Counted from the stretch's first letter, positions 4,491 through 45,531 are shown. The stretch: 64,000 nucleotides of DNA from Minisyncoccia bacterium (GCA_965656375.1 CBFHKH010000001.1:644291-708290), one strand, 5' to 3'. Notes: generated from the sequence alone by a model not told the origin. Numbers and translations: made by a program.

Positions 4491-4892
4491 ATGAAGAAGG
4501 AATTGTTAAAAATTGCAGTCGTACTACCACTTCTTGCGATATTGCTCGTCGCATTCAATTACGTACATGCTGCTTCATCTCAAAATCCCTTCGGTGGAGT
4601 GATAATAAACACGAAAGCAACAGAGATACAGCAAAAGGAAGCTCAAAATTTCAAGTGTATCGTACCTGGACAAACGATAACCATCCGCCCAAAGGGTAGA
4701 AATTCAAGAACAACCTTCTTCATCCCCGCTGCAGTAAAACAAAGAGGTGGGTCATCACTCCGAGCTAATCAGAACATACTTGGATATTTCAGCCAATCAA
4801 TGACAACAATATCGTGCATATATCAGGGCTATCCTACACGAACAGAAACTGTAACTCTTCCCTCTATAACTCTATTTGGAACCAACAAGTAA
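4491..4892 (+). CDS. secreted hypothetical protein (signal peptide)
   Basis: N-terminal MKKELLKIAVVLPLLAILLVAFNYVHA signal-like segment. First gene of the T4SS-like cluster. Confidence 0.5.
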   Translation: MKKELLKIAVVLPLLAILLVAFNYVHAASSQNPFGGVIINTKATEIQQKEAQNFKCIVPGQTITIRPKGRNSRTTFFIPAAVKQRGGSSLRANQNILGYFSQSMTTISCIYQGYPTRTETVTLPSITLFGTNK

Positions 4893-9267: not shown

Positions 9268-11982
9268 GTGAGCAAAAAAACTCTCCCCCTCATTCTCATA
9301 CTTCTCATCATCGCGCAAATGTTTGTGCCTTTTACTGTAGGACGTGACAAAAACAACATTCCCACAATAAAGAAATCTGTAACAGAAGCAGCAATAATGC
9401 AGGTAGCAGTTGACTATACGAGCACGAGTACCGCTATAGATCTTACATTTAGAATTCATCGAGAAACGTCAGATAATCATGGTGTTTTTTACATGATTAC
9501 AAATAATCCGGGAACGACACTAAATCCTAATAAGGATTTTTCATGTACGATATCAACAGGACAAATCTCTACAGTTATTCCCTGCGACTTGAAAGGTGTC
9601 GTTGAAAATGAAAATGCAGATACAGAGATAACATCAGCAAGCCAAGTGTTTGTTCCTGCAAGTGGATCAACAGCGATGGTTACTGATCGAATAAGTAACA
9701 ATCAATTAACCGCTGCTCCAGAAACAACAGGCAGTGATGGAAAAACATACAAGGATGTAACTATAAAGAAAGTTATAAGCCCACTTACTGCAAATACTAC
9801 GTACTACTTGAATGTCTGGGCGTATAATGGAAATCTGGTACCTGAAGGAATTTCATTCTTCTTAGATAAAAAAATAACAACGTCAGTTGCAGGTCAAACT
9901 AATCAGACACCTACTACAGTCGGAACTGTCGAAACAACAGGCGATGGCATGCCAAGTTGTGTATTTGCGCACCCAATAGATGGAACATTTGTAGGATGTA
10001 TAGCGCAGCTTATATATTACGTAGTATTCGTTCCTACTTCATATATATTTGGACTTGCAGGAATGTTTTTCGATACAACGTTTAATTATTCTATACAAGA
10101 CAAATCGTACAACAATTCATTCGTGGTGGAAGGGTGGGGGATCATACGTGATTTCTGCAACATTTTCTTCATATTCGTACTTCTCTATGTAGCATTCTCT
10201 ACAATACTCGGTCTTGGTCATAGTAAACCAAAGGAGATGATTGTAAATGTAGTAATTATAGGGCTTCTGATCAACTTCAGTCTTTTTACCGCTCAAGTCA
10301 TTATAGATACTTCGAACATTTTAGCTCGAGTCTTTTATAATTCCGACGCAGTCAAAGTCACTAAAGATGGAGTGGATCAAGCAGGTGCAAATGGCGTTAT
10401 ACCGATATCAGCCTCGATAGTGAGTAAGGTTGATCCGCAACAACTTATCATAAATTCGAGTAGAGTTTCTGTCTTAAACAAAGCAACCGGAGAAGAAGCA
10501 AGTGCAGGAAATAAAAATTCCACACTTGGAGTAGGAGGATTTATATTGATAACACTCCTTGCAAGTGCGGTTAACGTTGTAGGATTCATTGTATTTCTCA
10601 TGGTTGGAATTATGCTTGTATCTCGAGTTATCGGACTTTGGTTTGCAATGATCTTTGCTCCGCTTGCCTTCTTCTCATATACCGTACCTCAGATGCAAGG
10701 TATGTCGATGGTGGGTTGGAAACATTGGTGGCCGGAAACAATCAAGCTCGCCTTTCTTGCGCCTATTTTCATATTCTTTCTCTACCTCATCCTCAGATTC
10801 ATAGAGTTAGGATTCGGATTAGGAGATGCGGCAAAAGAATCAGGTATCAACTTTGTCCTTCTTACTATGATTCCGTTTATATTTATAATGGTTCTTCTTT
10901 GGAAAGCAAAAGATGTAGCAAAAGATCTGTCCGGCAAGCTTGGGCAAGGAATAACCGGTGGTATATCTGCAGTGGGAGGTATGGCTCTTGGCGGAGCGGC
11001 ACTTGGAGCTGCATTTGCAGGAAGAAAGCTTATTGGAAGTACCGTAGCTCGAGCATCACGAGGAGATACTCTTTCTCAAAGATATGAAGATCCTACAAAG
11101 AGAGCAAAGATGAATGTACTTCAAAAGAGCTTTGGATACATGGGTTCAAAAGTGGGACTCGGAAAAGTATTTGGTAATACATATGACGCAAAAACTCGAA
11201 CAGTCGATAGTGGTATCGGTGGAGTTTTAAATAAGAAACAAAGAAAAGTGGGTGAAATTGACCATGCTCGACACGAGATGGATGCAATTAAAGAAAAAGC
11301 TGGTCTCAAAGGAGTTGATGATGATAGGATTTCTGGCGTAAATGAACAGAAGATGAAGGATACATATGTCAAAGAGAAGAAATCTATGGTTGAATCGGAA
11401 CTTAGAAAGAATGGTGGAGTGGTTGGCGGACAGAAGGTTGAAAGTGAAAATGAATTCAAGGCAAATAATCGAAATCAACTGGTCACAAAAGCGATGAACG
11501 ATCCAAACAACCTAGAGGCTAATGGTACTCTAAAGGATGAGGCAAAGAAACAGATTGAGAATACTCTCAATGCAAATTATGAAATCTATATTAAACCACA
11601 AGTTGAAGCAAAGGCTGCTCAGGATTATGGTCACCTTCGAGATGAATCGAAAACAAAAGTTAATCCACTCGATAGAACAATCGCTCGGTCAAATACTGCT
11701 TCATATGATGCTCGCAATATCTCACAGATGAAAGCGGATAAACGTGAAGGTATATTTACCAGAATGAGTGCAGGATTGATAGCTGGAATCGCTATGGGGG
11801 TACGTACAGGGCTCAAGAATAGTGGAATCAATCATGGTTCTGGCCAAAGTGACTTCCTTAAGGATATTGGACATACTATTACAGAAGCAATGAAGAGCGC
11901 AAAATTTAATGTGAAAGTAGAAGAAAGTCATGGACATGACGCGGGAGGTGATCATGGGCACGGCGGTGGAGGTCATCACTAA
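9268..11982 (+). CDS. VirB6/TrbL-like polytopic membrane protein with long charged C-terminal domain and His/Gly-rich tail
   Basis: GTG start. N-terminal signal plus ~230-aa extracytoplasmic domain, a central block of at least six hydrophobic helices (aa ~240-560), then a charged K/E-rich domain ending HGHDAGGDHGHGGGGHH. The architecture resembles PrgH/TcpH-type VirB6 proteins. Confidence 0.5.
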   Translation: MSKKTLPLILILLIIAQMFVPFTVGRDKNNIPTIKKSVTEAAIMQVAVDYTSTSTAIDLTFRIHRETSDNHGVFYMITNNPGTTLNPNKDFSCTISTGQISTVIPCDLKGVVENENADTEITSASQVFVPASGSTAMVTDRISNNQLTAAPETTGSDGKTYKDVTIKKVISPLTANTTYYLNVWAYNGNLVPEGISFFLDKKITTSVAGQTNQTPTTVGTVETTGDGMPSCVFAHPIDGTFVGCIAQLIYYVVFVPTSYIFGLAGMFFDTTFNYSIQDKSYNNSFVVEGWGIIRDFCNIFFIFVLLYVAFSTILGLGHSKPKEMIVNVVIIGLLINFSLFTAQVIIDTSNILARVFYNSDAVKVTKDGVDQAGANGVIPISASIVSKVDPQQLIINSSRVSVLNKATGEEASAGNKNSTLGVGGFILITLLASAVNVVGFIVFLMVGIMLVSRVIGLWFAMIFAPLAFFSYTVPQMQGMSMVGWKHWWPETIKLAFLAPIFIFFLYLILRFIELGFGLGDAAKESGINFVLLTMIPFIFIMVLLWKAKDVAKDLSGKLGQGITGGISAVGGMALGGAALGAAFAGRKLIGSTVARASRGDTLSQRYEDPTKRAKMNVLQKSFGYMGSKVGLGKVFGNTYDAKTRTVDSGIGGVLNKKQRKVGEIDHARHEMDAIKEKAGLKGVDDDRISGVNEQKMKDTYVKEKKSMVESELRKNGGVVGGQKVESENEFKANNRNQLVTKAMNDPNNLEANGTLKDEAKKQIENTLNANYEIYIKPQVEAKAAQDYGHLRDESKTKVNPLDRTIARSNTASYDARNISQMKADKREGIFTRMSAGLIAGIAMGVRTGLKNSGINHGSGQSDFLKDIGHTITEAMKSAKFNVKVEESHGHDAGGDHGHGGGGHH

Positions 11983-11992
11983 ATAAGATATT

Positions 11993-13111
11993 ATGGATCA
12001 AACACAATTACAACAACAAATAGCTCTCTATTACTCAAAACTCTCGCCAGAAATGCAGGCGTCATTTTCGAGCATGCAGTGGATGGAATCACTCAGAGAA
12101 ATTAGTAGGATATACAAACTGACTGAAAATCAGATAGTTACACTCGGAACCGAAACAACCCTTGTTTTACTTGGGATAATATCCACAGAAGAATATGAAG
12201 CTACATTGAAAGATGAGATAAAAATAGACGATGCCGGAATGAAATCAATGCTTGCCGAGATTGAATCAAAAATACTCGGTGTAAATCGTTCCAGACTTAG
12301 AGAAGCATTTGAAAAGAATGTAGACGAATTAGGACAAGAAAAGTACGGTGGGGTACAGAAACTCGATGAACGATTCCTCAAGCTTCCGCAAGAAGTACAG
12401 CAAGCAATTAGAGAATCGAACTATCAACCTGTACTCTACAAAATTGCAGAAAAACATACACTTTCCATCAATCATATGGCAGCGCTAGAAGAAGCAACCA
12501 CAAAAGTCATGCTTGGCATGATACATCCCGACAAATATGAACAAGAATTACAATCTACTATCGGCATTCCAAAAGAAGAGATTAGAGAAATTGTCAGTGA
12601 AGTAGATGAAGGAGTTTTAAAAAATATTAAAGAAATACTCAAGTCACATTGGGGAAAACAAGAAATAGCAACTACTGCGGATGATGTTCCGATTCCACCG
12701 TATAAAACATCTTCACTAGAGACTTTTTCAAAGGAATCTGACGCGAAAATATACGAGGCGTCTGGAGTTGAAATAGTTAAAGATAGTAAGCCTATACTTT
12801 CAAAACCCGAAGAAAAGAGCGTAACAGAAAGTGAAAGCGGGGTTTTAAATAGTTCGGGAATCAATATCGTACGAGACATTCCCATTGCTCCTTCTGAACA
12901 CATACTTGCAAACAAAGAAACAGAGAAAAAACTCCTTGAAGGACTCGAGCATCCTGCCGATGTAGCAACAAGTATTATTGGGGATAAATTAAGCGGTGCG
13001 ACTAAAAGTAAAGACACGGTTACTGATTATTCACTACCAAAGCTTGGAAAGGATGTAGCGGTGCCTCTGCCCACAAAACCTCACGATCCATACCACGAAC
13101 CAATTGAATAG
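11993..13111 (+). CDS. hypothetical soluble protein (372 aa) inside T4SS-like cluster
   Basis: ORF with no TM segments or recognisable motifs. Confidence 0.4.
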   Translation: MDQTQLQQQIALYYSKLSPEMQASFSSMQWMESLREISRIYKLTENQIVTLGTETTLVLLGIISTEEYEATLKDEIKIDDAGMKSMLAEIESKILGVNRSRLREAFEKNVDELGQEKYGGVQKLDERFLKLPQEVQQAIRESNYQPVLYKIAEKHTLSINHMAALEEATTKVMLGMIHPDKYEQELQSTIGIPKEEIREIVSEVDEGVLKNIKEILKSHWGKQEIATTADDVPIPPYKTSSLETFSKESDAKIYEASGVEIVKDSKPILSKPEEKSVTESESGVLNSSGINIVRDIPIAPSEHILANKETEKKLLEGLEHPADVATSIIGDKLSGATKSKDTVTDYSLPKLGKDVAVPLPTKPHDPYHEPIE

Positions 13112-13130
13112 TTTGTGATACAATATATAC

Positions 13131-13547
13131 ATGCAGTTTAAGGTCCCACAATTCATTGATATTGAGGATAAGCTTTTCGGACCTTTCACGTTCCGTCAAT
13201 TCGTCTATCTAGTCGGTGGTGCAGGAATGATATTCGTTGTGTACAAGCTTTTGCCGCTCTATATTGGTATTTTTCTCATCATACCAATCGCAGGCCTTTC
13301 TGCGCTTTTGACATTTTACAAGATCAACAACAAGCCTTTTATTTATTATCTCCAGGCAGCAACAAATTACGCCATTTCAAGTAAACTCTATGTATGGAAA
13401 CAACGTCTTGCGAAACATACAGACAATATAAATACTGATGATATTGCTCTTTCTCAAAAAGTTTCTACCTTGCCAGTTATGACAGAGAGTAAACTCAAAG
13501 ATCTTTCATGGAGTCTTGATGTACAGGCAAAAGACGAAAATGAATAG
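13131..13547 (+). CDS. PrgI family / VirB3-like small membrane protein
   Basis: MQFKVPQFIDIEDKLFGPFTFRQFVYLVGGAGMIFV... matches the PrgI-family pattern (vP, K, lt.RQ, G) plus two TM helices. It sits directly upstream of the VirB4 gene, as in Gram-positive T4SS operons. Confidence 0.6.
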   Translation: MQFKVPQFIDIEDKLFGPFTFRQFVYLVGGAGMIFVVYKLLPLYIGIFLIIPIAGLSALLTFYKINNKPFIYYLQAATNYAISSKLYVWKQRLAKHTDNINTDDIALSQKVSTLPVMTESKLKDLSWSLDVQAKDENE

Positions 13548-13573
13548 GTAGTAAGTTGTGATATAATTACATT

Positions 13574-14227
13574 ATGGCAATCAACGCGAGGAGCGCACAA
13601 GAATTCGTACCAATCAAAGAAGTTCGCAATGGCGTCATCGTTCTCAAAGACGGAGGTCTTCGTGCAGTTCTTATTGCCTCATCTATCAATCTTTCTCTCA
13701 AATCAAGCGACGAGCAGACTGCTATTATAAATCAATTCCAGTCATTCTTAAATGGTCTTGATTTTCCAACACAAATCGTTATGCAGTCCCGCAGGCTCGA
13801 TATTCGTCCGTATCTTTTAACACTCGAAGAGAGACTCAAACAACAAAATGAGAAGCTTTTGAAGATTCAGACAAAGGAGTATATAGATTTCATCCGCTCA
13901 TTCACAGATGAGGTTAACATCATGACGAAAACATTCTTTGTCATTGTTCCCTATAGTTCGGCAGTACTTAAATCAAGCGATGGGTTGCTCGAAAAGATTG
14001 TCGGTGGAAATGCCGCTAAAAAGCAGATTGAAGATACGAAGAAAGCTATTGACCTCGCATCATTCGAAGAAAAACGAAGTCAGCTCGATCAGCGCGTTGG
14101 GGTTATTATCGGAGGTCTCGGCGGCATTGGTATTCGCTCAAGTCAGCTCAAGACCGAAGAGATCGTAGAGCTTTTTTATAAGACATTCAATCCAGGAGAT
14201 ATTAGTCAGGGAATTAAATTACAATAA
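13574..14227 (+). CDS. VirB4/PrgJ-like ATPase, N-terminal fragment (217 aa)
   Basis: EFVPIKEVRNGVIVLKDGGLRAVLIASSINLSLKSSDEQTAIINQFQSFLNGLDFPTQIVMQSRRLDIRPYL is the typical N-terminus of Gram-positive VirB4 (CagE_TrbE_VirB family). It ends with TAA 8 nt before the next ORF, in a different frame. Confidence 0.6.
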   Translation: MAINARSAQEFVPIKEVRNGVIVLKDGGLRAVLIASSINLSLKSSDEQTAIINQFQSFLNGLDFPTQIVMQSRRLDIRPYLLTLEERLKQQNEKLLKIQTKEYIDFIRSFTDEVNIMTKTFFVIVPYSSAVLKSSDGLLEKIVGGNAAKKQIEDTKKAIDLASFEEKRSQLDQRVGVIIGGLGGIGIRSSQLKTEEIVELFYKTFNPGDISQGIKLQ

Positions 14228-14235
14228 GAATCAGT

Positions 14236-16074
14236 ATGTCGATATTTTCATCACTATTTGGAGGAGGTAAAAACAAGACAGGACCAAAAAGCTCTGTCAT
14301 GCCGGTACTTCCCGCTGAGATCTATAAAGCTGCAACACTCGAGCTTCAAGATATCATCGCGCCATCAGCATTACAAATAACTCCAAAATCTTTAAACTTG
14401 GGCGATAAAATTGCGCGAACATTTTTCGTTATTTCCTACCCCCGATATCTCTCGGATAACTGGTTCTCGCCGATCATCAACCTTGATAAAGTTTTTGATG
14501 TATCTATATTTGTTCATCCGATCGATACCGCAGAAGTTCTCCATATGTTCCAGAAAAAAGTTGCCGAGGTGCAGAGTCAAATCTCTATTCGCGAATCAAA
14601 AGGTCTTGTTCGAGATCCAATGCTTGATACTGCGTATCAAGATTTAGAAGGACTTCGAGATAATCTTATGCAAGCTCAAGAGAAAATGTTTGATGTTGGA
14701 CTCTATATCACCGTATATGCCGATACAGAGAACGATCTGTTCAAAATTGAGAGTGAGATAAAATCCCTTTTAGAATCAAAGCTTATTTACCTAAAACCAG
14801 CCTTATTTCAGCAAGACGAAGCATTTAAAAGTGTTATTCCACTTGGTACAGATATACTCGGTATTCATCAGAAGCTCAATACAGAACCACTGTCTTCGCT
14901 CTTTCCGTTCGTATCATTTGACCTGACATCAGATAAAGGAATACTCTACGGGGTTAATCGTCACAACTCGAGCTTGATAATATTTGATCGATTCTCACTC
15001 CCGAACTACAATTCGATAACATTTGCCACATCCGGTGCAGGAAAATCATACGCGACAAAGCTCGAAATAATCCGCACACTCATGTTTGACACTGAGGTCA
15101 TCGTTATCGACCCTGAGCGTGAATATGAATACCTCTCTGAAGCAGTTGGCGGGCGATATTTCAATATATCTCTTTCGTCAGATCACCATATCAATCCGTT
15201 TGATTTGCCTATACCGTCATCTGATGAAACGGGAGCCGATGTTCTTCGCGCTAACACCATAAACCTGGTTGGACTATTTCGCATTATGCTTGGAGGTCTC
15301 ACTCCAGAAGAGGATTCTATAATCGATAGTGCTATCACTGAAACATACGCACTTAAAGACATTACGGCAGAATCTAATTTTGCAAACATTGAGCCTCCAC
15401 TTCTCTCTGATTTTGAAATGGTACTCGCTGGTATGGAGGGGAGTGGATCACTCATCCAACGTCTTGCAAAATTCACTCACGGATCATGGGCATCATTTCT
15501 AAACCAGGCTTCAAACGTAGATATCAATCGTAAATTCGTCGTGTTCTCTGTTCGCGACATGGAAGACGACCTAAAACCTGTTGCTATGTATATAGTCACA
15601 CACTATATATGGAATGCTGTTCGAAAGAATATAAAGAAACGATTACTTGTCGTCGATGAGGCCTGGTGGATGATGAAATCCGACGATACAGCTTCATTCC
15701 TTTATTCTATTGCTAAGCGCGGGCGTAAGTACTATCTCGGCCTTGCAACCATAACCCAAGACGTAGGAGACTTTATGAAGAGTCCGTATGGTGTGCCAAT
15801 TGTCACAAACTCTTCTATACAATTACTACTCAAACAATCTCCATCAACAGTTGATGTGCTCCAAAAAACTTTTAATCTGACAGATGAGGAAAAATACCTG
15901 CTTCTCGAAGCAAATGTCGGAGAGGGTATATTCTTTGCCGGCCTCAAGCACGTCGCGGTAAAGACTATTGCTTCATATACAGAAGATCAGATCATTACAT
16001 CTGATCCATCGCAAATACTCGCTATCAAGAAAGCAAAGGATGAATTGGCGGCATCTTCTGGGACAGGACGCTAA
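14236..16074 (+). CDS. VirB4/PrgJ-like ATPase, C-terminal portion incl. Walker A/B (612 aa)
   Basis: GDKIARTFFVISYPRYL region; Walker A TSGAGKSYATKLEII; Walker B LLVVDEAWWMM; LATITQDVGDF. Together with the 217-aa fragment this makes ~829 aa, the usual VirB4 length. Confidence 0.75.
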   Translation: MSIFSSLFGGGKNKTGPKSSVMPVLPAEIYKAATLELQDIIAPSALQITPKSLNLGDKIARTFFVISYPRYLSDNWFSPIINLDKVFDVSIFVHPIDTAEVLHMFQKKVAEVQSQISIRESKGLVRDPMLDTAYQDLEGLRDNLMQAQEKMFDVGLYITVYADTENDLFKIESEIKSLLESKLIYLKPALFQQDEAFKSVIPLGTDILGIHQKLNTEPLSSLFPFVSFDLTSDKGILYGVNRHNSSLIIFDRFSLPNYNSITFATSGAGKSYATKLEIIRTLMFDTEVIVIDPEREYEYLSEAVGGRYFNISLSSDHHINPFDLPIPSSDETGADVLRANTINLVGLFRIMLGGLTPEEDSIIDSAITETYALKDITAESNFANIEPPLLSDFEMVLAGMEGSGSLIQRLAKFTHGSWASFLNQASNVDINRKFVVFSVRDMEDDLKPVAMYIVTHYIWNAVRKNIKKRLLVVDEAWWMMKSDDTASFLYSIAKRGRKYYLGLATITQDVGDFMKSPYGVPIVTNSSIQLLLKQSPSTVDVLQKTFNLTDEEKYLLLEANVGEGIFFAGLKHVAVKTIASYTEDQIITSDPSQILAIKKAKDELAASSGTGR

Positions 16075-16133
16075 GAAGGTATTTCCGTGATTACCTACTT
16101 TCTAGTTATAGACAGATACTATATAATAGAGAT

Positions 16134-17129
16134 GTGATTACACAACGAGCAAAAATAGCACTAAGTGTACTTTTCTTGATAAGTATCCTTTACGTAGGTA
16201 AGGAAACTTGGGCAGCAAACGAAATTAATCCAGGTGAAGGAGATATATCAGTCACTACTATTCCAGAGAATCCGGAACCATATCAGGATGTCACAATACA
16301 GCTTTCAAGCTATGCGACAGATCTTAATAGAGCAATGATACAGTGGCAAAGCGGGGCGCGTGTCGTACTCTCAGGATATGGAAAGACAAGTTATTCATTC
16401 AAAACACAGGGTCCAAACACTGCAACTATACTTACTGTCATTATCGCAATACCAGGTACTATCGACAATATCACGAAACAGATATTCATTAATCCGTCAG
16501 AAGTTGAACTTATTTGGGAGGGAGTTGATTCATATACTCCGCCATTTTACAGAGGTAAATCATTTCCGACAGCTGAAAGCCGTATAAAGGTAGTAGCTAT
16601 TCCAAATACCACTACAATCAAACAAGGGAAGGGTTCAGTTTCGTATATATGGAAGTATGGTGATCGCACAGCACAAAGCGCGTCTGGCTACAATAAAGAT
16701 TCATTTGTTTATCAAAATAGTGTACTTAATGATATAGATAAGATCACAGTCACAGCAGAATCTGTGGATGGAGGATACACTGCAACAAAAAGTATACAAA
16801 TACCGATAAGAGAACCAAAACTCCTTTTCTATAAAAAGTCTCCAACTGAAGGGGTATTGTATAATCAAGCACTCGAGTCTGGATCATTTATTGAGGAAGA
16901 GGAAGCAACGTTTGTTGCAGTACCATATTTCCTTGCACTTTCTGGTAATGAGAATAATTTCAATTACACATGGAAGATAAATGGAAAAGAGATCGAAACT
17001 CCATCGAAAAAAACAGAACTCACTATTCGTCCAGCTGCTCGTGGGGGATATGCCACTATTGATGTACTTTTTGAGAACCTAGATACAATTTATCAGAGTG
17101 TGAAAGGTAGTCTTAAAATAACCCTCTAA
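16134..17129 (+). CDS. secreted hypothetical protein
   Basis: GTG start with a TATATAAT box just upstream. Signal peptide ALSVLFLISILYVGKETWA. Confidence 0.45.
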   Translation: MITQRAKIALSVLFLISILYVGKETWAANEINPGEGDISVTTIPENPEPYQDVTIQLSSYATDLNRAMIQWQSGARVVLSGYGKTSYSFKTQGPNTATILTVIIAIPGTIDNITKQIFINPSEVELIWEGVDSYTPPFYRGKSFPTAESRIKVVAIPNTTTIKQGKGSVSYIWKYGDRTAQSASGYNKDSFVYQNSVLNDIDKITVTAESVDGGYTATKSIQIPIREPKLLFYKKSPTEGVLYNQALESGSFIEEEEATFVAVPYFLALSGNENNFNYTWKINGKEIETPSKKTELTIRPAARGGYATIDVLFENLDTIYQSVKGSLKITL

Positions 17130-17130
17130 T

Positions 17131-18579
17131 ATGAAAAGATTTTCATCATTGCTAGTCCTCACACTTCTTGCAATAAACACTTTTGTGCCATTTGGTATAT
17201 CACTATCTTCTAATTTTTTACCAGAGATAGTGAAAAATACAGTTTCTGCTGATACCTGCACGATACTCTCAGCAGAATGGAGTCCGGCTGGTGAACAGAG
17301 CAAAAGTACTTTCTATAGAGACGGAAAGACGGCAGCAAATATCGTAGTGGGGACAAAGGGTTGTGTCGACCAACCAGGAATAACGCTTACTGTTTTTGAA
17401 TCGGATAGCTGTCCTCAGAATTGTGATGATGCATTGATTGATTCGAATCTATTGCGAAGACAGATAAAGGTTCCGAGTGATAATTTCACTATACGCATTA
17501 GATTAGGAGAAGAAGAATGCGAAGCTGGATTATCCGGAAGCATCGGCTATGACTGTGATTTATTCTTCTATATAAGACAAGGTGATACCACGCTCTATAA
17601 TTCATCTGGGAAAACCAATGGTGACATCTACTATGAATGTGACGGGCTTTGTTTTGACAATGCTGAATTATTGAAAATCTATGCCCAGGGATCAGACAGC
17701 AACCCAACCACTGTAGATATCAATACGAGCGCAATAAACGAAGATGTATATACTCTTCTTGCTCCTATCGGTAACATAAACTGTGTAAGTGATACTGGGA
17801 TGGATAAGGATGGTAATCAGAACTGCATTGTGGGCAATGGAATCGGATACTATCTGAATGCAATTTTCCTCCTTGCTATCGGTCTTTGTGGAGCGCTCGC
17901 AGTTATTATGATCATCATAAGTGGTATTCAGTACATGGGTGATGAATCAGTATTCGGTAAAACTGAAGCAAAGAGCAAGATATTTGCTGCAATACTTGGT
18001 CTTTTGATCGCACTTGGTTCATATGCATTGCTTCGAACTATTAATCCTGATCTCACTGGTTCAGACGGAGTATCGATAAGCCAAGTTGAGGCTGAAATAG
18101 ATGATCAACCGATACTCTCTGATGAAAATACAGTTGCTCCAATAGGAACAAATATTGCTAAGTGTCCGGAAGGAGTGGAACCAACACAAACTGCAACTGT
18201 AAAATTCATTACTTGTAAATCGATTTCAGTAAAGTTTAAACAAATGATTTCTGATGCATTAGCAGCAGGAATGAAAATAACTGGGGGAGGATTCAGAACC
18301 CGTGCTGAGCAAGTTGCTCTGTATCAAAAGAATTGTGGAGGTGGTACAAGAAAATGTAATCCACCTACAGCAAAACCAGGAAGTTCTATGCACGAAAGTG
18401 GGCTCGCATTTGATTTGAAATGCGATGGAAATTTAATCAATTTTGACGGAAATCAAAGAAAATTCCCAATTGTTACATCTACAAAAAAATGTTTTGATTG
18501 GTTAGCCGCAAATGCCTATAAATACGGACTACAAAATTTTAAAAGAGAAAATTGGCACTGGTCTACAAACGGTCACTAA
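17131..18579 (+). CDS. secreted Cys-rich domain + VirB2/TrbC-like TM hairpin + C-terminal peptidase M15 (VanY/CwlK-type) peptidoglycan hydrolase
   Basis: Signal peptide. Two hydrophobic helices separated by a short charged loop (LNAIFLLAIGLCGALAVIMIIISGIQYMGDESVFGKTEAKSKIFAAILGLLIALGSYALL). C-terminal SSMHESGLAFDL (SxHxxGxAxD) and ENWHW (ExxH) zinc-peptidase motifs. Confidence 0.6.
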   Translation: MKRFSSLLVLTLLAINTFVPFGISLSSNFLPEIVKNTVSADTCTILSAEWSPAGEQSKSTFYRDGKTAANIVVGTKGCVDQPGITLTVFESDSCPQNCDDALIDSNLLRRQIKVPSDNFTIRIRLGEEECEAGLSGSIGYDCDLFFYIRQGDTTLYNSSGKTNGDIYYECDGLCFDNAELLKIYAQGSDSNPTTVDINTSAINEDVYTLLAPIGNINCVSDTGMDKDGNQNCIVGNGIGYYLNAIFLLAIGLCGALAVIMIIISGIQYMGDESVFGKTEAKSKIFAAILGLLIALGSYALLRTINPDLTGSDGVSISQVEAEIDDQPILSDENTVAPIGTNIAKCPEGVEPTQTATVKFITCKSISVKFKQMISDALAAGMKITGGGFRTRAEQVALYQKNCGGGTRKCNPPTAKPGSSMHESGLAFDLKCDGNLINFDGNQRKFPIVTSTKKCFDWLAANAYKYGLQNFKRENWHWSTNGH

Positions 18580-18589
18580 TAAATAATAT

Positions 18590-19927
18590 ATGCCTAGAAA
18601 AACAAAAATTATCTTCATAATCGTGTTTGCAGTCATCGGGATGGGAACGTTGAGTGCATATTTCTACATTAATCGTGCAAAAACAACCGGATCAACTGAT
18701 GGTGCTTCATCTGGCTACAAACCGTTCTTTGGTAGTAGTAATACACCCGATACAGAAACAACATCACAAGATCAAACAGGAAACACCGATACCAATGTAA
18801 ATACAGAATCAGCCGAAACCATAAATGCGACACCATCAGGTTCTTCTCGATTCAGTCAGATTGCTAATTTCGCAGTTGCAGGAGCGGTATTTTTCGAAGA
18901 TACCCGACCAATACCCGAAGATGAAGTAGCCCTACCGGGAGGTGAAGAGCCAGCTAAAGAACCTTCTCCAGTGAAAGCTAAAACAAAGACAGCTCCTGTG
19001 AAACCACAAGCACCTAAATTTGAAATAGTACCGAGTCTTCGGTATGTAGAGCGCGCTACAGGGCATATACATCAGATGTATCTGGACACAAAAGTAACTG
19101 GACAAGTCTCTAATGGAACAATACCAACAGTATATGAAGCTCTCTTTGATGGTAAAGCAAACTCGCTTTTGTATCGCTATATCGGAGATGATGGACGGAG
19201 TATTACAAGTTTCTTAGCAACACTCGGAAGTGCAAATGGTGAATTTTTGCCGGCAGATATCCTCGATGTAAGCGTTTCTCCCGATAAAAGCAAATTCTTT
19301 TATTTGACAAAGACTGCTCAAGGGGTAGTCGGCACAACTCGGTCATTTAGAGATACGAAAAAAACCCAAATATTTAGCTCTTCTCTTACAGAACTTCTTT
19401 CAGAGTGGGTAACCGACCAGAAGGTATTTTTAACGACAAAAGCTGATTCCTCGGTAAACGGAAGTGTATTTAGTCTAAATACTGGGACTGGAGTCCTTAC
19501 AAAGATCCTAGGAGGGGTAAAGGGGCTTACAACCCTTGCAAACAACGATGGGTCATTCGTCCTTTACAGTGTCTCAACAAATAGTGGTCCGAGGTTAGGT
19601 ATTTTTGATGTTAAAAATCATACCTCAAAAGACCTCAATATAAATGGGCTTCCAGAAAAATGTATTTGGAAGGATACTTTTATTTATTGCGCTATTCCTA
19701 ACAATGCTACAGGTACCGGATATCCAGAACTATGGTACCGAGGACAAGTATCATTTACTGATCATTTTGTTAAGATAAATACAACAACATATGAAAGCAC
19801 TACGTTGGCGGATTCAGCATACGAGATACCTATCGATGGTACTCATCTTTTCTTGGATGATACAGATACGACTCTCTTCTTCATAAACAAGAAAGACTCC
19901 ACTCTTTGGAGTCTTAACCTAAAGTAA
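18590..19927 (+). CDS. membrane-anchored hypothetical protein, probable beta-propeller-like extracytoplasmic domain
   Basis: N-terminal TM IIFIIVFAVIGMGTLSAYFYI. Last gene of the cluster, convergent with jag. Confidence 0.4.
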   Translation: MPRKTKIIFIIVFAVIGMGTLSAYFYINRAKTTGSTDGASSGYKPFFGSSNTPDTETTSQDQTGNTDTNVNTESAETINATPSGSSRFSQIANFAVAGAVFFEDTRPIPEDEVALPGGEEPAKEPSPVKAKTKTAPVKPQAPKFEIVPSLRYVERATGHIHQMYLDTKVTGQVSNGTIPTVYEALFDGKANSLLYRYIGDDGRSITSFLATLGSANGEFLPADILDVSVSPDKSKFFYLTKTAQGVVGTTRSFRDTKKTQIFSSSLTELLSEWVTDQKVFLTTKADSSVNGSVFSLNTGTGVLTKILGGVKGLTTLANNDGSFVLYSVSTNSGPRLGIFDVKNHTSKDLNINGLPEKCIWKDTFIYCAIPNNATGTGYPELWYRGQVSFTDHFVKINTTTYESTTLADSAYEIPIDGTHLFLDDTDTTLFFINKKDSTLWSLNLK

Positions 19928-21990: not shown

Positions 21991-23352
21991 ATGTCCACTA
22001 TGAACACAAACGAGCTCTGGAATAACTGTCTTTCAGAAATTGAATCAGGAATATCAAAAGCCAATTTTACTACATGGTTTAAAAATACATCAATAGTAAA
22101 AGAGGATAATGGTACTGTCTATATCGGTGTCCCAAATGAATTTGTAAAAGATTGGCTCTATAATAAATTTCACAAGCTTATACTCAAAACAATAATTACT
22201 CACGAAGAGAGTATCCGAGGAATCGAATATATAATCTCTAAGCACGAGCACACAGCACAACGACAGAACGAAGAAAAGAATATGCCTCTTGTACAAGTAA
22301 ACAAAGAGCTTCCGCTTAATGATCTCTATATAAATAAAGACGATAATCTAAACCCTAAGTATAATTTTAATTCTTTTGTTGTAGGGCCATTCAACGAACT
22401 TGCCTACGCTGTCGCTCAAGCGATTATAACTAACCCTGGTCAGAACTATAATCCATTTTTTATTTATGGGGGTACTGGCCTTGGAAAAACTCATATTATT
22501 CAAGCGATTGGCAATACAATTAAAACTAAACATCCATCAAAAAAGATCTATTATGTGAGTCTTGAACGATTCGCGATTGATTACATAAATTCGATACAAA
22601 ACAAGAATCCTAACTCTTTCAAAGAAAAATATCGAAAATACGACGTGATTATTATGGATGACATCCAATTCATCTCAGGCAAAGATAAGACCCAGGAAGA
22701 ACTTTTCCATCTTTTCAATACACTCTATGAGAGTAATAAGCAAATAGTGTTTTCTTCAGATAAGCATCCGAATTTTATCCCTGGTCTTGAAGATAGACTT
22801 AAATCTCGTTTCGCCTCTGGAATGATCGTGCAAATCGTAGAGCCTGATTATGAATCTCGAGTCGCTATTATAAAAGCAAAGTTCGAAACAACAAACTCTA
22901 TTGTAGATAAAGATGTGATAGCATATCTCGCTGAATCACTCGAAGGTAATATTCGAGAGCTCGAAGGAAGCTTAAATACTGTTATCGTCCAATCTCAATT
23001 AAAAGGTAAAACTCTTTCAGTCGCTGAGGTTAAAACTCTTATAAAAAATAACATAAAACCCAAAAAGACTGTTGCAATTAAGGATATTGTTCGTATTATC
23101 GCACTCCAATATGGAATCTCAGAAGATGTTATTTACGAGAAAACACGCAGAAGAGAGATTGTCCGAGCTCGCCAAGTAGCTATGTATATCTTGCGTGAAG
23201 ATTTCAATATCTCATATCCACTCATAGGACAGAAAATGGGTGGACGGGATCACACAACCGTCATACACTCTCATCTAAAAATACGAGATGACCTTAAAAC
23301 AGATCCGTCATTACTCCAAGAAATAGAAAAAATTAGAATTATGTTTAAATAG
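21991..23352 (+). CDS. dnaA: chromosomal replication initiator protein DnaA
   Basis: AAA+ Walker A GGTGLGKTHIIQAIGN, the FNSFVVGPFNELAYA box and a C-terminal DNA-binding domain (VAMYILRE...IGQKMGGRDHTTVIH). Confidence 0.92.
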   Translation: MSTMNTNELWNNCLSEIESGISKANFTTWFKNTSIVKEDNGTVYIGVPNEFVKDWLYNKFHKLILKTIITHEESIRGIEYIISKHEHTAQRQNEEKNMPLVQVNKELPLNDLYINKDDNLNPKYNFNSFVVGPFNELAYAVAQAIITNPGQNYNPFFIYGGTGLGKTHIIQAIGNTIKTKHPSKKIYYVSLERFAIDYINSIQNKNPNSFKEKYRKYDVIIMDDIQFISGKDKTQEELFHLFNTLYESNKQIVFSSDKHPNFIPGLEDRLKSRFASGMIVQIVEPDYESRVAIIKAKFETTNSIVDKDVIAYLAESLEGNIRELEGSLNTVIVQSQLKGKTLSVAEVKTLIKNNIKPKKTVAIKDIVRIIALQYGISEDVIYEKTRRREIVRARQVAMYILREDFNISYPLIGQKMGGRDHTTVIHSHLKIRDDLKTDPSLLQEIEKIRIMFK

Positions 23353-23558
23353 TGTGGAAAAGGTATGTATAAAAAAGTGGAGAAATGTGGAAAATATAGA
23401 ACAGTGTATAAAAATTAAAAATTATGCACAGAAGTTGTTTTTATAAGAAAATAAAATTAATAAAAATATATTTATAAAACAATGACTAGATCACAATCCA
23501 CATATTCACATCACTAATAGTAATAGTAATGTATTAATAGATAATTAGTAACATATAT
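23353..23558. promoter_or_regulatory. putative oriC (dnaA-dnaN intergenic, AT-rich, multiple DnaA-box-like 9-mers)
   Basis: TGTGGAAAA occurs twice and AATCCACAT once; each matches the TTATCCACA consensus at 7/9 positions. A very AT-rich tract (ataaaattaataaaaatatatttataaaa) could be a DNA-unwinding element. Confidence 0.55.
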
Positions 23559-24656
23559 ATGAAACTCGAATGCGGAATAGAAAAAATAAAAAAAGCACTC
23601 ACAACAGTAGAACGCATTACTGGTAAAAATCTAACACTCCCTGTACTCAGTTCGATACTTTGGATTGCATCGGGAAAAACACTAAAACTTCGAGCTACTA
23701 ATCTTAATATTGGTATTGAGATTGATATTCCTGCAAAGATAGAAAAAGAAGGCACTATTGCAATTCGAGGTGATATACTTTCTTCTTTATTTTCAGTTCT
23801 AGAAGGAGGTTCAACTGTTTATTTTGAATCAGTAAACGGAAATATGGTTGTTAAGACAAAAACAAACACTATTTTACTTAAAAGCATTCCACATGAAGAT
23901 TTCCCTACAATTCCGATTGTTGAAGGTGATACATTTACTCTTTCTTCAAAAAAACTCATCGAAGGTATTAAATCCGTTTACTACAGTGCGTCTGTATCAG
24001 AGGTAAAACCAGAGATTGGAAGTATCTATATCTATCCAGAAGATGATATGCTTGTATTTGTTGCAACAGACTCTTTCCGACTTGCAGAAAAGAAGGTAAA
24101 GATAAAACAAAAACTATCATTTAACGGGATATTAATACCATTTAAAAATACTACAGAGATTTTAAAAGTATTTGATAGTATTGATGACGATATTAAAATC
24201 TGCCTACAAAAGAATCAAATATCTTTTTCAAGTGAAAATATATATCTCACATCGCGGGTAATAGATGGAACATTCCCTGACTATAAACAAATCATACCCA
24301 AGAATTCAACTACACAGGCAGTGGTTTTGAAACAAGACTTTATCGCATCTCTGAAAATTTCAAATATTTTTTCTGATAAATTAAATCAAATAACTATCGA
24401 TATACACCCAAAAGAAAAAGTCTTTGAATTACAATCTAAAAATACAGATATTGGCGAAAACACTACACATATAAACGGAGCACTTACTGGAGAGGTGGTT
24501 TCCGCAAACTTCAACTATAAATATATTGTTGATTGCTTTTTGTCTATCTCTCTCGATAGTTTAACTCTCGAACTCAATGGAAACAATAAACCTATGATCA
24601 TTCGTGCTGTTGGAGATAATTCATTCATGTATCTTGTGATGCCAATGAATAGATAA
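23559..24656 (+). CDS. dnaN: DNA polymerase III beta subunit (sliding clamp)
   Basis: 365 aa, directly after dnaA. Typical N-terminus MKLECGIEKIKKALTTVERI and three-domain length. Confidence 0.88.
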   Translation: MKLECGIEKIKKALTTVERITGKNLTLPVLSSILWIASGKTLKLRATNLNIGIEIDIPAKIEKEGTIAIRGDILSSLFSVLEGGSTVYFESVNGNMVVKTKTNTILLKSIPHEDFPTIPIVEGDTFTLSSKKLIEGIKSVYYSASVSEVKPEIGSIYIYPEDDMLVFVATDSFRLAEKKVKIKQKLSFNGILIPFKNTTEILKVFDSIDDDIKICLQKNQISFSSENIYLTSRVIDGTFPDYKQIIPKNSTTQAVVLKQDFIASLKISNIFSDKLNQITIDIHPKEKVFELQSKNTDIGENTTHINGALTGEVVSANFNYKYIVDCFLSISLDSLTLELNGNNKPMIIRAVGDNSFMYLVMPMNR

Positions 24657-42178: not shown

Positions 42179-42613
42179 ATGAAAAAACAAACAGTAAAAA
42201 AGGGAATGTCTACAGGTGCAAAGATCGGTATTGGGGCAACTGTTGCAGCAGCAGGAGTAGCAGCATATCTTCTCCTTGGTCCGGATGGGAAGAAGAATCG
42301 TAAGAAGGTTAGTGCATGGACAGACAAGATGGAGAAAGAAGTGATTAAAAAGGTTAAATCTGCAAAGGCTCTCTCAGAAGCGACATATCATGATCTCATC
42401 GACGATGTCCTTGCGAAATACAAGACCATACAAGGAGTCAATAAAAAAGAACTTATTGCTCTTGCGTCTGAATTGCGCAATCATTGGAAAGCAATTTCAA
42501 ATAGTGCAAAACCAAAGAAGGTAGTAAAGAAAGTTGTAAAGGCAAAAGTTAAGAGTGCTTTAAAACCAAAGAAAGCGACAAAAGCTACATCAAAACAAAA
42601 AGCAAAAAAGTAA
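42179..42613 (+). CDS. lysine-rich hypothetical protein with N-terminal hydrophobic segment
   Basis: K-rich C-terminus (KPKKVVKKVVKAKVKSALKPKKATKATSKQKAKK). Confidence 0.4.
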   Translation: MKKQTVKKGMSTGAKIGIGATVAAAGVAAYLLLGPDGKKNRKKVSAWTDKMEKEVIKKVKSAKALSEATYHDLIDDVLAKYKTIQGVNKKELIALASELRNHWKAISNSAKPKKVVKKVVKAKVKSALKPKKATKATSKQKAKK

Positions 42614-42616
42614 TAG

Positions 42617-42666
42617 ACTCATATTAAAATCCCCCGATTTCTGTCGGGGGATTTTAATATGAGTTT
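42617..42666. terminator. extended hairpin terminator (ACTCATATTAAAATCCCCCGA...TGTCGGGGGATTTTAATATGAGT)
   Basis: ~23-bp inverted-repeat arms, between convergent genes. Confidence 0.6.
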
Positions 42667-42818
42667 TATGCAACAGGATTCTTACCTTTGATGACTCGTA
42701 CGAGCAACATGATTATCGCTACCACAAGAAGGATATGGATAAAGCCGCTGATAGTATATGAAGTGACCAATCCGAGAATCCACAAAATGATAAGGATTAC
42801 TGCAATTGTAGTAAGCAT
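42666..42818 (-). CDS. lmo0937-family small membrane protein (50 aa)
   Basis: Hand-translated ORF, not in the track: MLTTIAVILIILWILGLVTSYTISGFIHILLVVAIIMLLVRVIKGKNPVA. GFIHILLV.AII is the family signature. Confidence 0.55.
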   Translation of the reverse strand: MLTTIAVILIILWILGLVTSYTISGFIHILLVVAIIMLLVRVIKGKNPVA

Positions 42819-43294
42819 GATATATATTCGTTAATAAATAATATGATATGAAGGAGACGATTCGATCATATCTCTCACATTTCCAGTATAACTTTCTTTT
42901 TGGCAAAAAGAAAAGGCCTAGGAGTTAACTCTCGAGTTATTCGAGACCTAGCTCCTAAGCCTTTGGCTTTAGATTAAAGAACATTCTGCACAGTATAATA
43001 CTAGAGTGCATATTTTCTATGATATATCGGACAATATTTACTTTAAAACCCCTCTATCGTCGGGTGAAACGAATATGCCGCTTATCAAACTACCTTGTTC
43101 TTATTATACAACTACTATCCACAGTCATCAAATAAAGATGTGGATAACTCTTGGTAGGAAATCTCGCTGACGGCGCGTGATTGGTGGTTTGCATGCAAAC
43201 AGCACCAATCTTTCGATTCCTACACGCACGACATGCAGATGTCGTGCTCGAGGGCACATATGAAAAAGAACACTCTAGAGTGTTCTTTTTCATA

Positions 43295-43336
43295 TGTGCC
43301 CTCGGTAGGAATCGAACCTACGACCATCTCCTTAAA
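43295..43336 (-). repeat. 42-nt duplicate of the 3' half of tRNA-Lys(UUU) (anticodon loop to acceptor end), att-like direct repeat
   Basis: tgtgccctcggtaggaatcgaacctacgaccatctccttaaa is identical to 44710..44751 of the intact tRNA-Lys. Confidence 0.7.
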
Positions 43337-44073
43337 TAATATATTTTCATTAAATAATAAAAGTTATTCTAAGTCAATGGCTAAATTCTTGCAAAAGTTT
43401 TTTTCGACGTGATACAATGAACGCAAGGATATAAGATATCCAAAAACAAATATAAAGTTTCTCTATTAGCGTGGAGAAGCAGGCAATCATTCAGTATTCC
43501 AAAAAACTGAAAAATACCTTAAAGGGGCATGTGAGACTCCCAGGAGTCTCATCACGCTAAAACAATGGGACACTGGATTAATTTTCAGAGTTCACATGCG
43601 CCTTTAGGGTATTTTTATTTGTAAGTGTTCTCTGAGAGCAACCGTTCTGGTTGGTTGTTTATCAGGGTACGTTTATAAGTAACTTTGGGAGTGTTGTTGT
43701 ACCTAAAACTCCACGTCGCAGGACATAAAACTGATGTGCCATGAACACTATTTCTTGCACATGTGCCTTAATCTGTGTTGCCTACGTGACTCGGAAAGGT
43801 GGTTGGCGTGACTATGCTCGCAAACGCGGGTTCAAATGTTGGCCAATTACTGACTCTCGATCGTGTGAGTTACACAACAAAAAAGCCCTCAAACCATAAC
43901 AAGTTTTAAAGGCTAAAATGAAAGCTTCTTTGTTTTCTTTCTCCCCATTTCCACAAGAATGGGGATTTTCTTTTAATAGATATATTATACCAACAAGGGA
44001 AGCAAATTTGAATAGGAAATACCCCTTGTTAACCGTGTGCATATCTTACTCGATTGAGGGAATTTATGCAACC

Positions 44074-44107
44074 TAAAATCCCCTTGATATATCAAGGGGA
44101 TTTTAGC
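44074..44107. terminator. perfect palindromic hairpin CTAAAATCCCCTTGATA-TATCAAGGGGATTTTAG
   Basis: Perfect 17-bp arms; same AAAATCCCC stem family. Confidence 0.55.
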
Positions 44108-44215
44108 TTCTGAACCTTTGGCGTTTTAGTTGGTCGATACTGGCCAGTCTTCTTCAAATACTCAACCATACCTTTCCGACCAGCCTTCGATAATTTTTCT
44201 GTAACTTTTTTCATA

Positions 44216-44479
44216 CTAATCAAAATAAATTCCGCCATGTCTGAATCCAAGCCACATCAGGAAACAGATCATAATTAAGAGAGCCGGGAGTTTCCACCAT
44301 GAAAGCTTTTTCTCAGTAAATAGTTGGCTTGTGAATGCCAAACCAATAGTGAGGAATCCTGTGATGGTAAGCGAGGTTTCAAAGTTCACGAAATACATGA
44401 GAACAAAAAAGAGAGCACCGAGGAGTAGAATCGATATTCGAAAGAATGATCGAGCTTCCTCATCTTGAGGTATATGCAT
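44216..44479 (-). CDS. small 3-TM membrane protein, hypothetical
   Basis: Three hydrophobic helices; lies within the att-like-bounded island. Confidence 0.4.
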   Translation of the reverse strand: MHIPQDEEARSFFRISILLLGALFFVLMYFVNFETSLTITGFLTIGLAFTSQLFTEKKLSWWKLPALLIMICFLMWLGFRHGGIYFD

Positions 44480-44711
44480 GGGCGAGGTCGTTTAACTAAT
44501 AACGCAAAACACCATCCTGGAAATGGCCGACCTCGCGAGTAGACCACTCCAAGATGGAGCTTTATACGCGAGGTCTTTATTTGTTTTGCCCTTTAATTGT
44601 AGCATAAATAGGCAGAGGGCGTACAAGAAACCGCCTAACGGCGGTTTCTTGTACGCAACATGTGGATAAGTACGTATTCTTCTCTTTCCTACTTTCCTTT
44701 TACTTATACTG

Positions 44712-44784
44712 TGCCCTCGGTAGGAATCGAACCTACGACCATCTCCTTAAAAGGGAGCTGCTCTACCGACTGAGCTACGAGGGC
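44712..44784 (-). tRNA. tRNA-Lys (anticodon UUU)
   Basis: Hand-folded cloverleaf: acceptor GCCCTCG/CGAGGGC, D-arm GCTCAGTCGGTAGAGC, anticodon loop CUUUUAA, T-arm GTAGGTTCGATTCCTAC. No encoded CCA. Confidence 0.8.
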
Positions 44785-44836
44785 ATTTGCTTGTATAAAA
44801 TTCATTTTACAAGTACACTCAAAAATATCACATTTT

Positions 44837-45334
44837 ATGGAAAAAATCAATAAAACAAAGAATAAACCAGAAGTCATCTTGATTCTCCCTGATATCAGAT
44901 CTGCAATAAATGTCGGTTCAATATTTCGAACGGCAGATGCTGCTGGAGTAGGGAAAATCTATCTCACTGGGTATACGCCGCGTCCAACTGATACATTTGG
45001 CCGAATACAAAAGGATATAGCAAAAAGTGCGCTCGGAGCTGAAACATGGATTCCCTGGGAATACAAAAAAAGTGTATCTGCCCTCATTTCAAAATTACAA
45101 AAAGATGGATACAGCATTGTTGCTCTTGAACAAGATGAGAAGTCAATTGATTACAAGAAATTCAAAACGCCTACAAAGATGGCCCTCATTGTCGGTTCAG
45201 AAGTGGAAGGCTTGAACAAGAAAATAGTAAATACATGTGACTCTGTAATAGAAATACCGATGTACGGTAAGAAAGAGTCTCTCAATGTGGGAGTTGCCGC
45301 TGGGATCGTGTTGTTTCGAATACTCGAACGCTAG
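44837..45334 (+). CDS. SpoU/TrmH-family RNA 2'-O-methyltransferase
   Basis: ILILPDIRSAINVGSIFRTADAAGV...LIVGSEVEGL...IPMYGKKESLNVGVAAGIVLF are SPOUT motifs. Confidence 0.7.
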   Translation: MEKINKTKNKPEVILILPDIRSAINVGSIFRTADAAGVGKIYLTGYTPRPTDTFGRIQKDIAKSALGAETWIPWEYKKSVSALISKLQKDGYSIVALEQDEKSIDYKKFKTPTKMALIVGSEVEGLNKKIVNTCDSVIEIPMYGKKESLNVGVAAGIVLFRILER

Positions 45335-45531
45335 TTTGGTTTTTCACCTGGACCGTAGACTTGAAGCGGAGCTTCTGTATCATTGCCCGGAGTTATGAAT
45401 GGCTTATCTGTTGAAACATTATTCTCAGGTCCTCCGGTGAGAACCCAAATGACGAATATAGCCACAATGAAAAGGAGAATCATTACAAGGAAATCCATTT
45501 CACCTTTTTGATAGTTAATTCTTTTATTCAT
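45331..45531 (-). CDS. small membrane protein, hypothetical
   Basis: One TM FLVMILLFIVAIFVIWVL; translationally coupled to mutM. Confidence 0.35.
   Translation of the reverse strand: MNKRINYQKGEMDFLVMILLFIVAIFVIWVLTGGPENNVSTDKPFITPGNDTEAPLQVYGPGEKPN

Follow-up and report, generated by a model that had tools for sequence, protein, structure and literature searches.

The stretch of DNA analysed here, 64,000 nt of a Minisyncoccia bacterium genome (GCA_965656375.1 CBFHKH010000001.1:644291-708290, referred to below as the window), carries on its minus strand an intact tRNA-Lys(UUU) gene at 44711-44784, called by ARAGORN and by Infernal (Rfam tRNA model, 73.9 bits), together with a second, co-oriented copy of the 3' part of this gene lying to its 3' side. 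Between them lies an insert of 1,373 bp (43337-44709) with small transcription units and no recombinase gene, in a neighbourhood encoding TsaE, an acyltransferase, PolA, a SpoU methylase, Fpg, RuvA and S20. Our analysis indicates that the arrangement is probably an integration scar of the anticodon-loop type around a non-autonomous island resembling the cis-mobilizable elements (CIMEs) of streptococci, and that the tRNA fragment is followed by a member of an apparently undescribed family of structured elements found behind tRNA genes in this lineage.

The two copies of the repeated segment occupy 43295-43336 and 44710-44751 and agree at 42 of 42 positions, as the initial annotation of the locus had reported, and they form the sole direct repeat family in 42500-45500. 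Searching with a 31-mer of the repeat at up to 3 mismatches returned these two sites alone in the window and 0 in 100 shuffles of it. An Infernal alignment shows that the repeat, in the tRNA sense, starts within the 7-nt anticodon loop CUUUUAA, at U34 (the anticodon's first base), and ends 2 nt beyond the discriminator, in agreement with the earlier description of a segment copied from the anticodon loop to the acceptor end. The right copy lies within the intact gene, whose 3' 41 nt are the portion carried by the insert, and the left copy is the 3' part that tRNA-Lys had originally, now displaced but with its old terminator and the structured element behind it still attached. A 20.5-bit match to the beta_tmRNA model at 43240-43326 was dismissed as a transfer-messenger RNA (tmRNA), two-piece or ordinary, since it reflects only the T-arm and acceptor and ARAGORN finds no tmRNA.

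The identification of the left copy as the original 3' end rests on what follows it. A perfect palindrome of 56 nt with no spacer (43249-43304) overlaps the end of the left repeat copy and combines a bidirectional terminator core with the fragment's acceptor 3' strand and the complement of that strand, and past it lies a structured minus-strand element at 43153-43258, which we refer to as a tRNA-tail element; both were absent from the initial annotation. This element consists, in order, of a complement to the acceptor 3' strand, a hairpin of 9 bp whose loop is CUGC, a T-stem/T-loop complement (GTAGGAATCGAAAG), a second hairpin and GATTTCCTACC, and folding of 43100-43340 compared with shuffled sequences gave z = -11.3. 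A covariance model of the 5' domain gave 23 strong matches in 0.92 Mb of sequence and exactly three in the window, each 46-51 nt past a tRNA 3' end. Two of them follow tRNA-Arg(GCG) (48031-48105; match at 47943-47993, minus, complementary to the 3' end of that tRNA) and tRNA-Ser(UGA) (50277-50364; match at 50192-50242, minus), and the third, at 43208-43258, lies behind the tRNA-Lys fragment, with none in 43337-44709. As the element stands behind the fragment and not behind the intact gene, the fragment is the original 3' end of tRNA-Lys, and the insert brought the 3' part that the gene now has, in line with an integration model. The original terminator is replaced by a terminator-like hairpin of 17 perfect base pairs borne by the insert (44619-44656), 55 nt past the intact gene; by reading of the sequence it is flanked on the minus strand by a TTATCCACA box (44661-44669) and a TGCTACAAT site resembling a -10 element (about 44596-44604). 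A comparable perfect palindrome, of 54 nt, stands behind tRNA-Lys at locus L009 of a related genome.

Related loci were collected by a PolA-based scan with one genome per species, which yielded 57 loci, nearly all from metagenome-assembled genomes of Patescibacteria/Paceibacterota labelled Nomurabacteria, Yonathbacteria and similar, the closest of which (L003) has a PolA 78% identical to that of the window. The tRNA-Lys gene is syntenic in about 40 of these loci, 1.5-4 kb beyond PolA. Each of 62 tRNA genes from the window and the related loci was checked for a repeat, 28 nt or longer, of its 3' or 5' part, and an extra copy of its own 3' part of this length was found for the window tRNA-Lys only. 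The duplicated arrangement was sought in, and is absent from, the roughly 40 related tRNA-Lys loci; the initial annotation had named its presence in relatives as evidence of an ancestral feature. The empty site that it had proposed looking for is seen in two relatives. In L003 a tRNA-Lys gene of the same orientation is followed directly by ATTTTTAGTTATCCCCAAC...TTGTTGTATAAT (also given as GTTATCCCCA...TTGTATAAT) and a terminator-ended short unit, while the window counterpart of this flank, AAGAGTTATCCACATC...GTAGTTGTATAAT, is found past the fragment and the tail element, at about 43148-43100 (minus). The flank in L012 is similar, with tRNA-Lys passing directly into native downstream sequence. 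The insertion is derived. An origin by tandem duplication was discarded, as no similarity exists between the insert and what lies past the fragment; only the repeat itself is duplicated.

Within the insert we found three small transcription units bounded by promoters and terminators, with hairpins as separators. The first, on the plus strand at 43389-43628, starts with a promoter-like site of the extended -10 kind (TTGCAA-18-TACAAT with TG, 43389-43418), behind which a stretch of about 200 nt runs to a long hairpin (43510-43616) and a T run; we regard this sRNA-like (small RNA-like) unit as a candidate sRNA or leader of the small gene downstream. The inverted repeat previously noticed near 43506-43620 corresponds to this hairpin, with arms of 25 nt at 43510-43534 and 43592-43616 that are 92% complementary. 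The second unit is a plus-strand gene (43741-43899) for a Cys-rich protein of 52 aa (CTCAxICVAYxTRKxGWRDYA..GFKCWPI), followed by a terminator-like hairpin and T run at 43942-43965. The third, on the minus strand, comprises an open reading frame (ORF) of 87 aa with three hydrophobic segments (44216-44479) and a basic 52-aa ORF that overlaps its end (44092-44250), and it ends in a 20-bp hairpin at 44070-44109. Both ORFs of this last unit are orphans with no counterpart in any relative, and for the 87-aa ORF the sole match among 5.8 billion clusters was itself, from the NCBI genome. A weak PADLOC match of the basic ORF to HEase (E 0.0025, 15.5 bits) was not trusted. Against Rfam, at gathering and at permissive thresholds, the insert and the tail element gave no match beyond hairpin-like chance hits, and when the sRNA-like unit and tail element were searched across the window and 7 related loci only the tRNAs reached threshold.

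The Cys-rich ORF has homologues in two relatives, locus L004 and contig L060, the latter from the Logan assemblies. In pairwise comparison of the three copies, differences at the first, second and third codon positions number 14/13/29, 10/7/18 and 8/11/23, mostly third, with 12-18 synonymous codon changes per pair, a pattern by which we judge this to be a real small protein gene under purifying selection. The initial annotation, which had described the island as gene-poor with only two doubtful ORFs, therefore has to be revised. In L004 the sRNA-like unit is about 80% conserved, and the module that it forms with the small gene matches, at 73-81% identity, the intergenic region that separates ruvB from another gene; in L060 the ORF part of the module adjoins an IS1595-family transposase gene. 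The occurrence of the cargo module at other sites in relatives speaks for an integration, as does the lack of any likeness between the insert and the sequence beyond the fragment. On L060 itself, the gene for the IS1595-family DDE transposase (400-1263) has the homologue of the small-gene module directly downstream (1330-1917), each with a AGTTATCCAC box upstream.

That the module occupies a different locus in L004 also fits an internal rearrangement, in which a chromosomal sRNA/small-gene module was translocated beside tRNA-Lys and the 3' half of the tRNA gene was copied along with it, and which may be linked to frequent reorganisation around tRNA-Lys in the lineage. The locus is indeed a hot spot of rearrangement, as tRNA-Lys differs in orientation and in its neighbours from one relative to another: relative to PolA the gene lies on the plus or the minus strand (loci L003-L058), and it leads directly into the SpoU gene in L007, L015 and L030, while the window has tRNA-Lys and SpoU divergent. 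Such a translocation nevertheless leaves unexplained why the duplication is a clean 42 nt with its boundary in the anticodon loop, and it does not account for the unit of 87-aa and 52-aa ORFs, which has no counterpart in relatives; we consider it quite unlikely. The 'tRNA-Stop(tta)' calls at L013 15436-15509, L014 15133-15206 and L018 14033-14106 are not suppressor tRNAs: they result from a one-base register shift in ARAGORN, with a loop (CCCTTTTAAGGAG) that is the same as in tRNA-Lys(UUU).

Several results weigh against a scar left by a site-specific recombinase. The composition of the insert is that of the host, with a GC content of 39.3%, where the window has 38.8% and the insert ranks at the 53rd percentile among stretches of its length, so the GC shift claimed for the island at first does not exist. 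No recombinase domain was found in the 30 largest ORFs of the 64-kb window, the part covered of a genome of roughly 840 kb, and the insert ORFs gave no convincing match to Pfam, PHROG, PADLOC or NCBIfam (none below E 0.3 for PHROG) and nothing like a recombinase, transposase or phage protein; in this respect the earlier statement that no integrase is present stands. Gene remnants of a parental element were not found in the insert. The search of phage and integrative element databases suggested earlier was carried out as a BLAST of the insert against 50,697 phage records and 72,556 plasmids, with no similarity found. In IMG/VR the sequence of the putative attachment site (att), the left junction and a relaxed tRNA-Lys 3' half gave 0 matches each, a degenerate pattern of the small gene gave 0 in IMG/VR and the JGI metagenomes, and the reconstructed empty junction, a 53-mer composed of CATA, the 42-mer and AGGGAGC, gave 0 in the JGI metagenomes, so that no conspecific empty site was seen directly. 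The host lineage seems simply to be missing from these collections, and a blank in them does not exclude a parental element. An exact look-up of four insert ORFs in a contig index recorded none, and as this index also lacks the NCBI source genome the result is uninformative alone. The perfect identity of the two repeat copies says little about their age because other species (L003, L005, L009) carry these 42 nt with 100% conservation.

The Logan assembly of run ERR15116721 contains contigs with proteins 100% identical to those of both flanks, and 17 of the 19 non-insert window proteins are recorded exactly from Logan, while the 87-aa insert ORF is recorded from the NCBI genome only. This pattern of presence and absence is suggestive of an island-free conspecific population. 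However, the contigs stop at 43278, the centre of the palindrome (contig L002), and start at 44750, none spans the site and neither junction is confirmed or refuted by them; with 2 of the 19 control proteins also missing, the absence of the island may be a chance gap in the assembly. A misjoin of the insert at the repeated tRNA sequence would explain why independent contigs end near both repeat copies and why the island ORFs are on no Logan contig. We find such an assembly artefact hardly credible: the source sequence appears to be a single 840-kb contig, a misjoin would not yield a partial tRNA with the correct native terminator and tail element, and the breaks in the Logan contigs can be explained by the 56-nt palindrome and by tRNA sequence that different species have in common.

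The lack of an integrase in the insert ORFs and in the largest window ORFs, and the host-like composition, would also be expected of an insertion driven by homology or made illegitimately, in which DNA carrying tRNA-Lys, for example a fragment taken up from a relative or an excised chromosomal circle, recombined with the chromosome in a Campbell-type, RecA-dependent event and so duplicated the shared 42 nt. In L004 the conserved module belongs to the ordinary chromosome, the tRNA does not differ in sequence between species and would offer homology to foreign DNA, and the window encodes proteins of pilus or uptake type, one PilM-like and one a TraG/VirB4-like ATPase. Homology gives no reason, however, for a block that ends exactly in the anticodon loop and just past the tRNA, and 42 nt is short for efficient RecA recombination, and on balance we think a homology-driven origin unlikely.

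We therefore return to an integration scar around a non-autonomous island, which we regard as the probable explanation, and infer that an integrase made the scar and that the insert arrived as a circle. A circular element with a copy of the 3' part of tRNA-Lys, from the anticodon to the 3' end, would have met the chromosomal tRNA-Lys gene, and site-specific recombination inside the anticodon loop, in the manner of the tyrosine integrases of tRNA-targeting islands, would have joined the two; the circle junction as reconstructed reads ...CTTTTACTTATAC + 42-mer + TAATATATTTTC.... The copy from the element would complete the functional gene at 44711-44784, and the original 3' part (43295-43336) would have been pushed 1.4 kb away with its native palindromic terminator and tail element. 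What remains would be an island made up of the sRNA or leader unit, the Cys-rich 52-aa gene, the ORF pair on the opposite strand and a new terminator for the tRNA gene. As no recombinase lies between the att-like copies, such an island could move only with an integrase supplied in trans. We retain the scar reading of the initial annotation because the block is the one that integrases of the anticodon-loop type duplicate, it is the only block duplicated, the gene is regenerated, the insertion is lineage-specific and a native marker stands behind the fragment. Its description of a decayed or miniature, trans-dependent element is upheld in so far as the insertion is derived and non-autonomous and probably an integration scar, and the GC shift and doubtful ORFs that it had offered in support were wrong. 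With neither remnants nor a parental element found, the element may have lost its integrase by deletion or may never have had one.

The tail elements extend well beyond the tRNA-Lys locus. In the window their full spans, all on the minus strand, are 43153-43258 (Lys), 47770-47993 (Arg) and 50090-50242 (Ser), and in relatives (L005-L057) elements of about 110-250 nt lie after the terminator behind many tRNA genes, including those for Lys, Arg, Ser and Gly. The common architecture starts with a bidirectional terminator hairpin, continues with a complement to the acceptor 3' strand of the element's own tRNA, the 9-bp hairpin with its CUGC loop, a complement to the T-stem 3' strand and T-loop (GTAGGAATCGAAAG, GCAGGAATCGAAAG or GCGAGATTCGAAAG) and one to three further hairpins, and finishes with a repeat, in many cases incomplete, of the tRNA's own T-stem 3' strand and acceptor 3' strand (T-loop to 3' end). 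For complete copies the predicted fold has an acceptor-like stem, the hairpin and a T-like stem within which two more hairpins lie. The 5' domain was compared in 20 copies. A cognate tRNA ends 46-61 nt before 13 of them, and the acceptor complement is perfect (8/8) in 10 of these 13, across 9 different acceptor sequences, compared with a mean of 4.8/8 for non-cognate pairs. The hairpin shows compensatory changes at all nine pairs, with 47 double-change cells, a value reached by 0 of 500 shuffles; the sample was picked with a pairing filter, yet the hairpin is present at every non-tRNA site with the flanking motif. Arms that track species-specific acceptors and a covarying hairpin point to probable selection on pairing, whether as RNA or as single-stranded or cruciform DNA. 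In the Lys and Arg tails of the window the 3' repeat lacks the acceptor part, yet the 5' arms match the upstream tRNA end at 20 of 20 positions, which favours a role, putative at this stage, for pairing across the terminator with the 3' half of the tRNA.

Copies of the tail element also occur in tandem (L029, L049, L009) and as orphans (L006:11020-11070, L007:21474-21524, L012:21929-21979, L029:13990-14039). The short direct repeats at the ends of the elements resemble att duplications of the T-loop type, and given these repeats and the tandem and orphan copies the elements could be miniature cassettes. We found no description of them in the literature searched; they appear to be an undescribed family and are the more novel observation at the locus. 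One could further imagine, as a tentative and rather doubtful extension, that a lineage-specific system acts on the 3' ends of tRNAs and that the island is simply its largest member, with the tails being either cassettes moved by a trans-acting recombinase or tRNA-tailored RNAs that control 3' maturation or read-through. If true, this would be a new kind of tRNA-linked element, and the 1.4-kb island would be a cargo-bearing insertion at the same hot spot. Two other repeats were noted. Behind the tRNA-Arg tail at 47745-47900 (minus) a distal module (GCAGAAAAG.ACCCGCGAC.GTAG.TCGAGAT.ATCC) is found twice in tandem, about 100 nt apart, and in L006 a different repeat family has three copies (4690-4740, 6320-6370 and 9800-9850; ...AAAATGG.TTAACCCA.A.AGGAATCGAAC.TTTTG...) with the same T-loop-complement motif and no CUGC hairpin.

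Integrase-type insertion at tRNA genes is among the best-known routes of gene gain. Good records of such insertions are scarce for Patescibacteria, a group with genomes of about 0.8 Mb that are considered poor in mobile elements, and the scar itself belongs to an ordinary kind, here in a host that is unusual. A clean, apparently recent insertion free of a recombinase would imply that a cognate recombinase exists or existed in the lineage, and that the cargo moved consists of very small genes, here an sRNA-like unit and a Cys-rich protein of 52 aa. The tail element serves as an internal marker of polarity that may help to map such insertions in related genomes.

Some further features of the region were recorded. 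A second candidate sRNA is a short non-coding unit on the minus strand at about 42900-43110, between the tail element and a DUF5670 gene, with a promoter-like TTGATG-17-TATAAT (43131-43103), a strong terminator (about 42915-42960) and a 3' end conserved in L003, L004, L006, L007, L009 and L011. A motif (A)GTTATCCAC(A), equivalent to the DnaA-box consensus TTATCCACA, stands about 10 nt upstream of the -35-like hexamers of promoter-like sites, in the window at 43139-43148 and 44661-44669, in L003 at 14517-14526, in L060 at 343-352 and 1310-1319, and also in L012, L018, L021 and L022. Its contexts are the region behind tRNA-Lys, the right end of the island and, in L060, the positions before the small-gene module and the IS1595 transposase gene, and it may be a lineage-wide, promoter-associated binding site, which remains putative; dnaA and dnaN lie about 20 kb away (21991-24656). 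Directly upstream of tRNA-Ser, a GIY-YIG-like ORF of 79 aa (50374-50613, minus) is recorded from the NCBI genome only and not from Logan, and may be another variable gene or reflect a chance gap. Large ORFs with no Pfam match at 9268-19927 surround the TraG/VirB4-like P-loop ATPase (14236-16074) and a VanY-domain protein (17131-18579) and may form a cluster of secretion or DNA-transfer type.

Among known systems, the island is closest in layout to the tRNA islands catalogued by Islander (Williams 2002, PMC100330; Hudson et al. 2015, PMC4383910), with which it shares an intact tDNA and a co-oriented, displaced 3' fragment distal to the regenerated gene, a fragment start in the anticodon loop, regeneration of the gene by the insert and absence from relatives, uninterrupted in L003 and L012. 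That collection recognises crossover subsites in the anticodon loop, the T loop and at the T/acceptor junction; a 3' fragment is present in 3,760 of its 3,919 islands, and 2,083 islands are anticodon-centred (PMC4383910). Islander, however, requires an integrase gene, of which none was found here, the 1.4 kb of the present island is far below the usual sizes, and the island has no phage, plasmid or integrative and conjugative element (ICE) genes. A prophage or phage satellite was rejected, as the insert ORFs had no PHROG match below the E value given above and there was no match to phage DNA. The CIMEs of streptococci, decayed ICEs or integrative and mobilizable elements (IMEs) which have kept attL and attR and lost their integration and transfer genes (Guedon et al. 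2017, PMC5704250), are alike in that both att-like copies bound the island, recombinase and transfer genes are lacking and the target is the 3' end of a tRNA-Lys-type gene, where further elements can accrete; they differ in that the island has no recognisable parental element or gene remnants, that its mobilisation is a prediction only and that its host is a member of the Patescibacteria with a genome of about 0.84 Mb. Tycheposons of Prochlorococcus (Hackl et al., 10.1101/2020.12.28.424599) likewise place cargo at tRNA genes of a streamlined genome, leave partial tRNAs behind, have older elements pushed distally by newer ones and include integrase-less remnants, whereas they are defined by a site-specific integrase and replication hallmark genes (10.1101/2020.12.28.424599), none of which were found here. 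The island resembles miniature inverted-repeat transposable elements (MITEs) in being small, non-autonomous and in need of an enzyme in trans, and is unlike these and insertion sequences in that its ends lack terminal inverted repeats and its flanking repeat is 42 nt of the target gene rather than a short target-site duplication. Of the known classes, that of recombinase-less tRNA islands suits it best, as a new and very small member.

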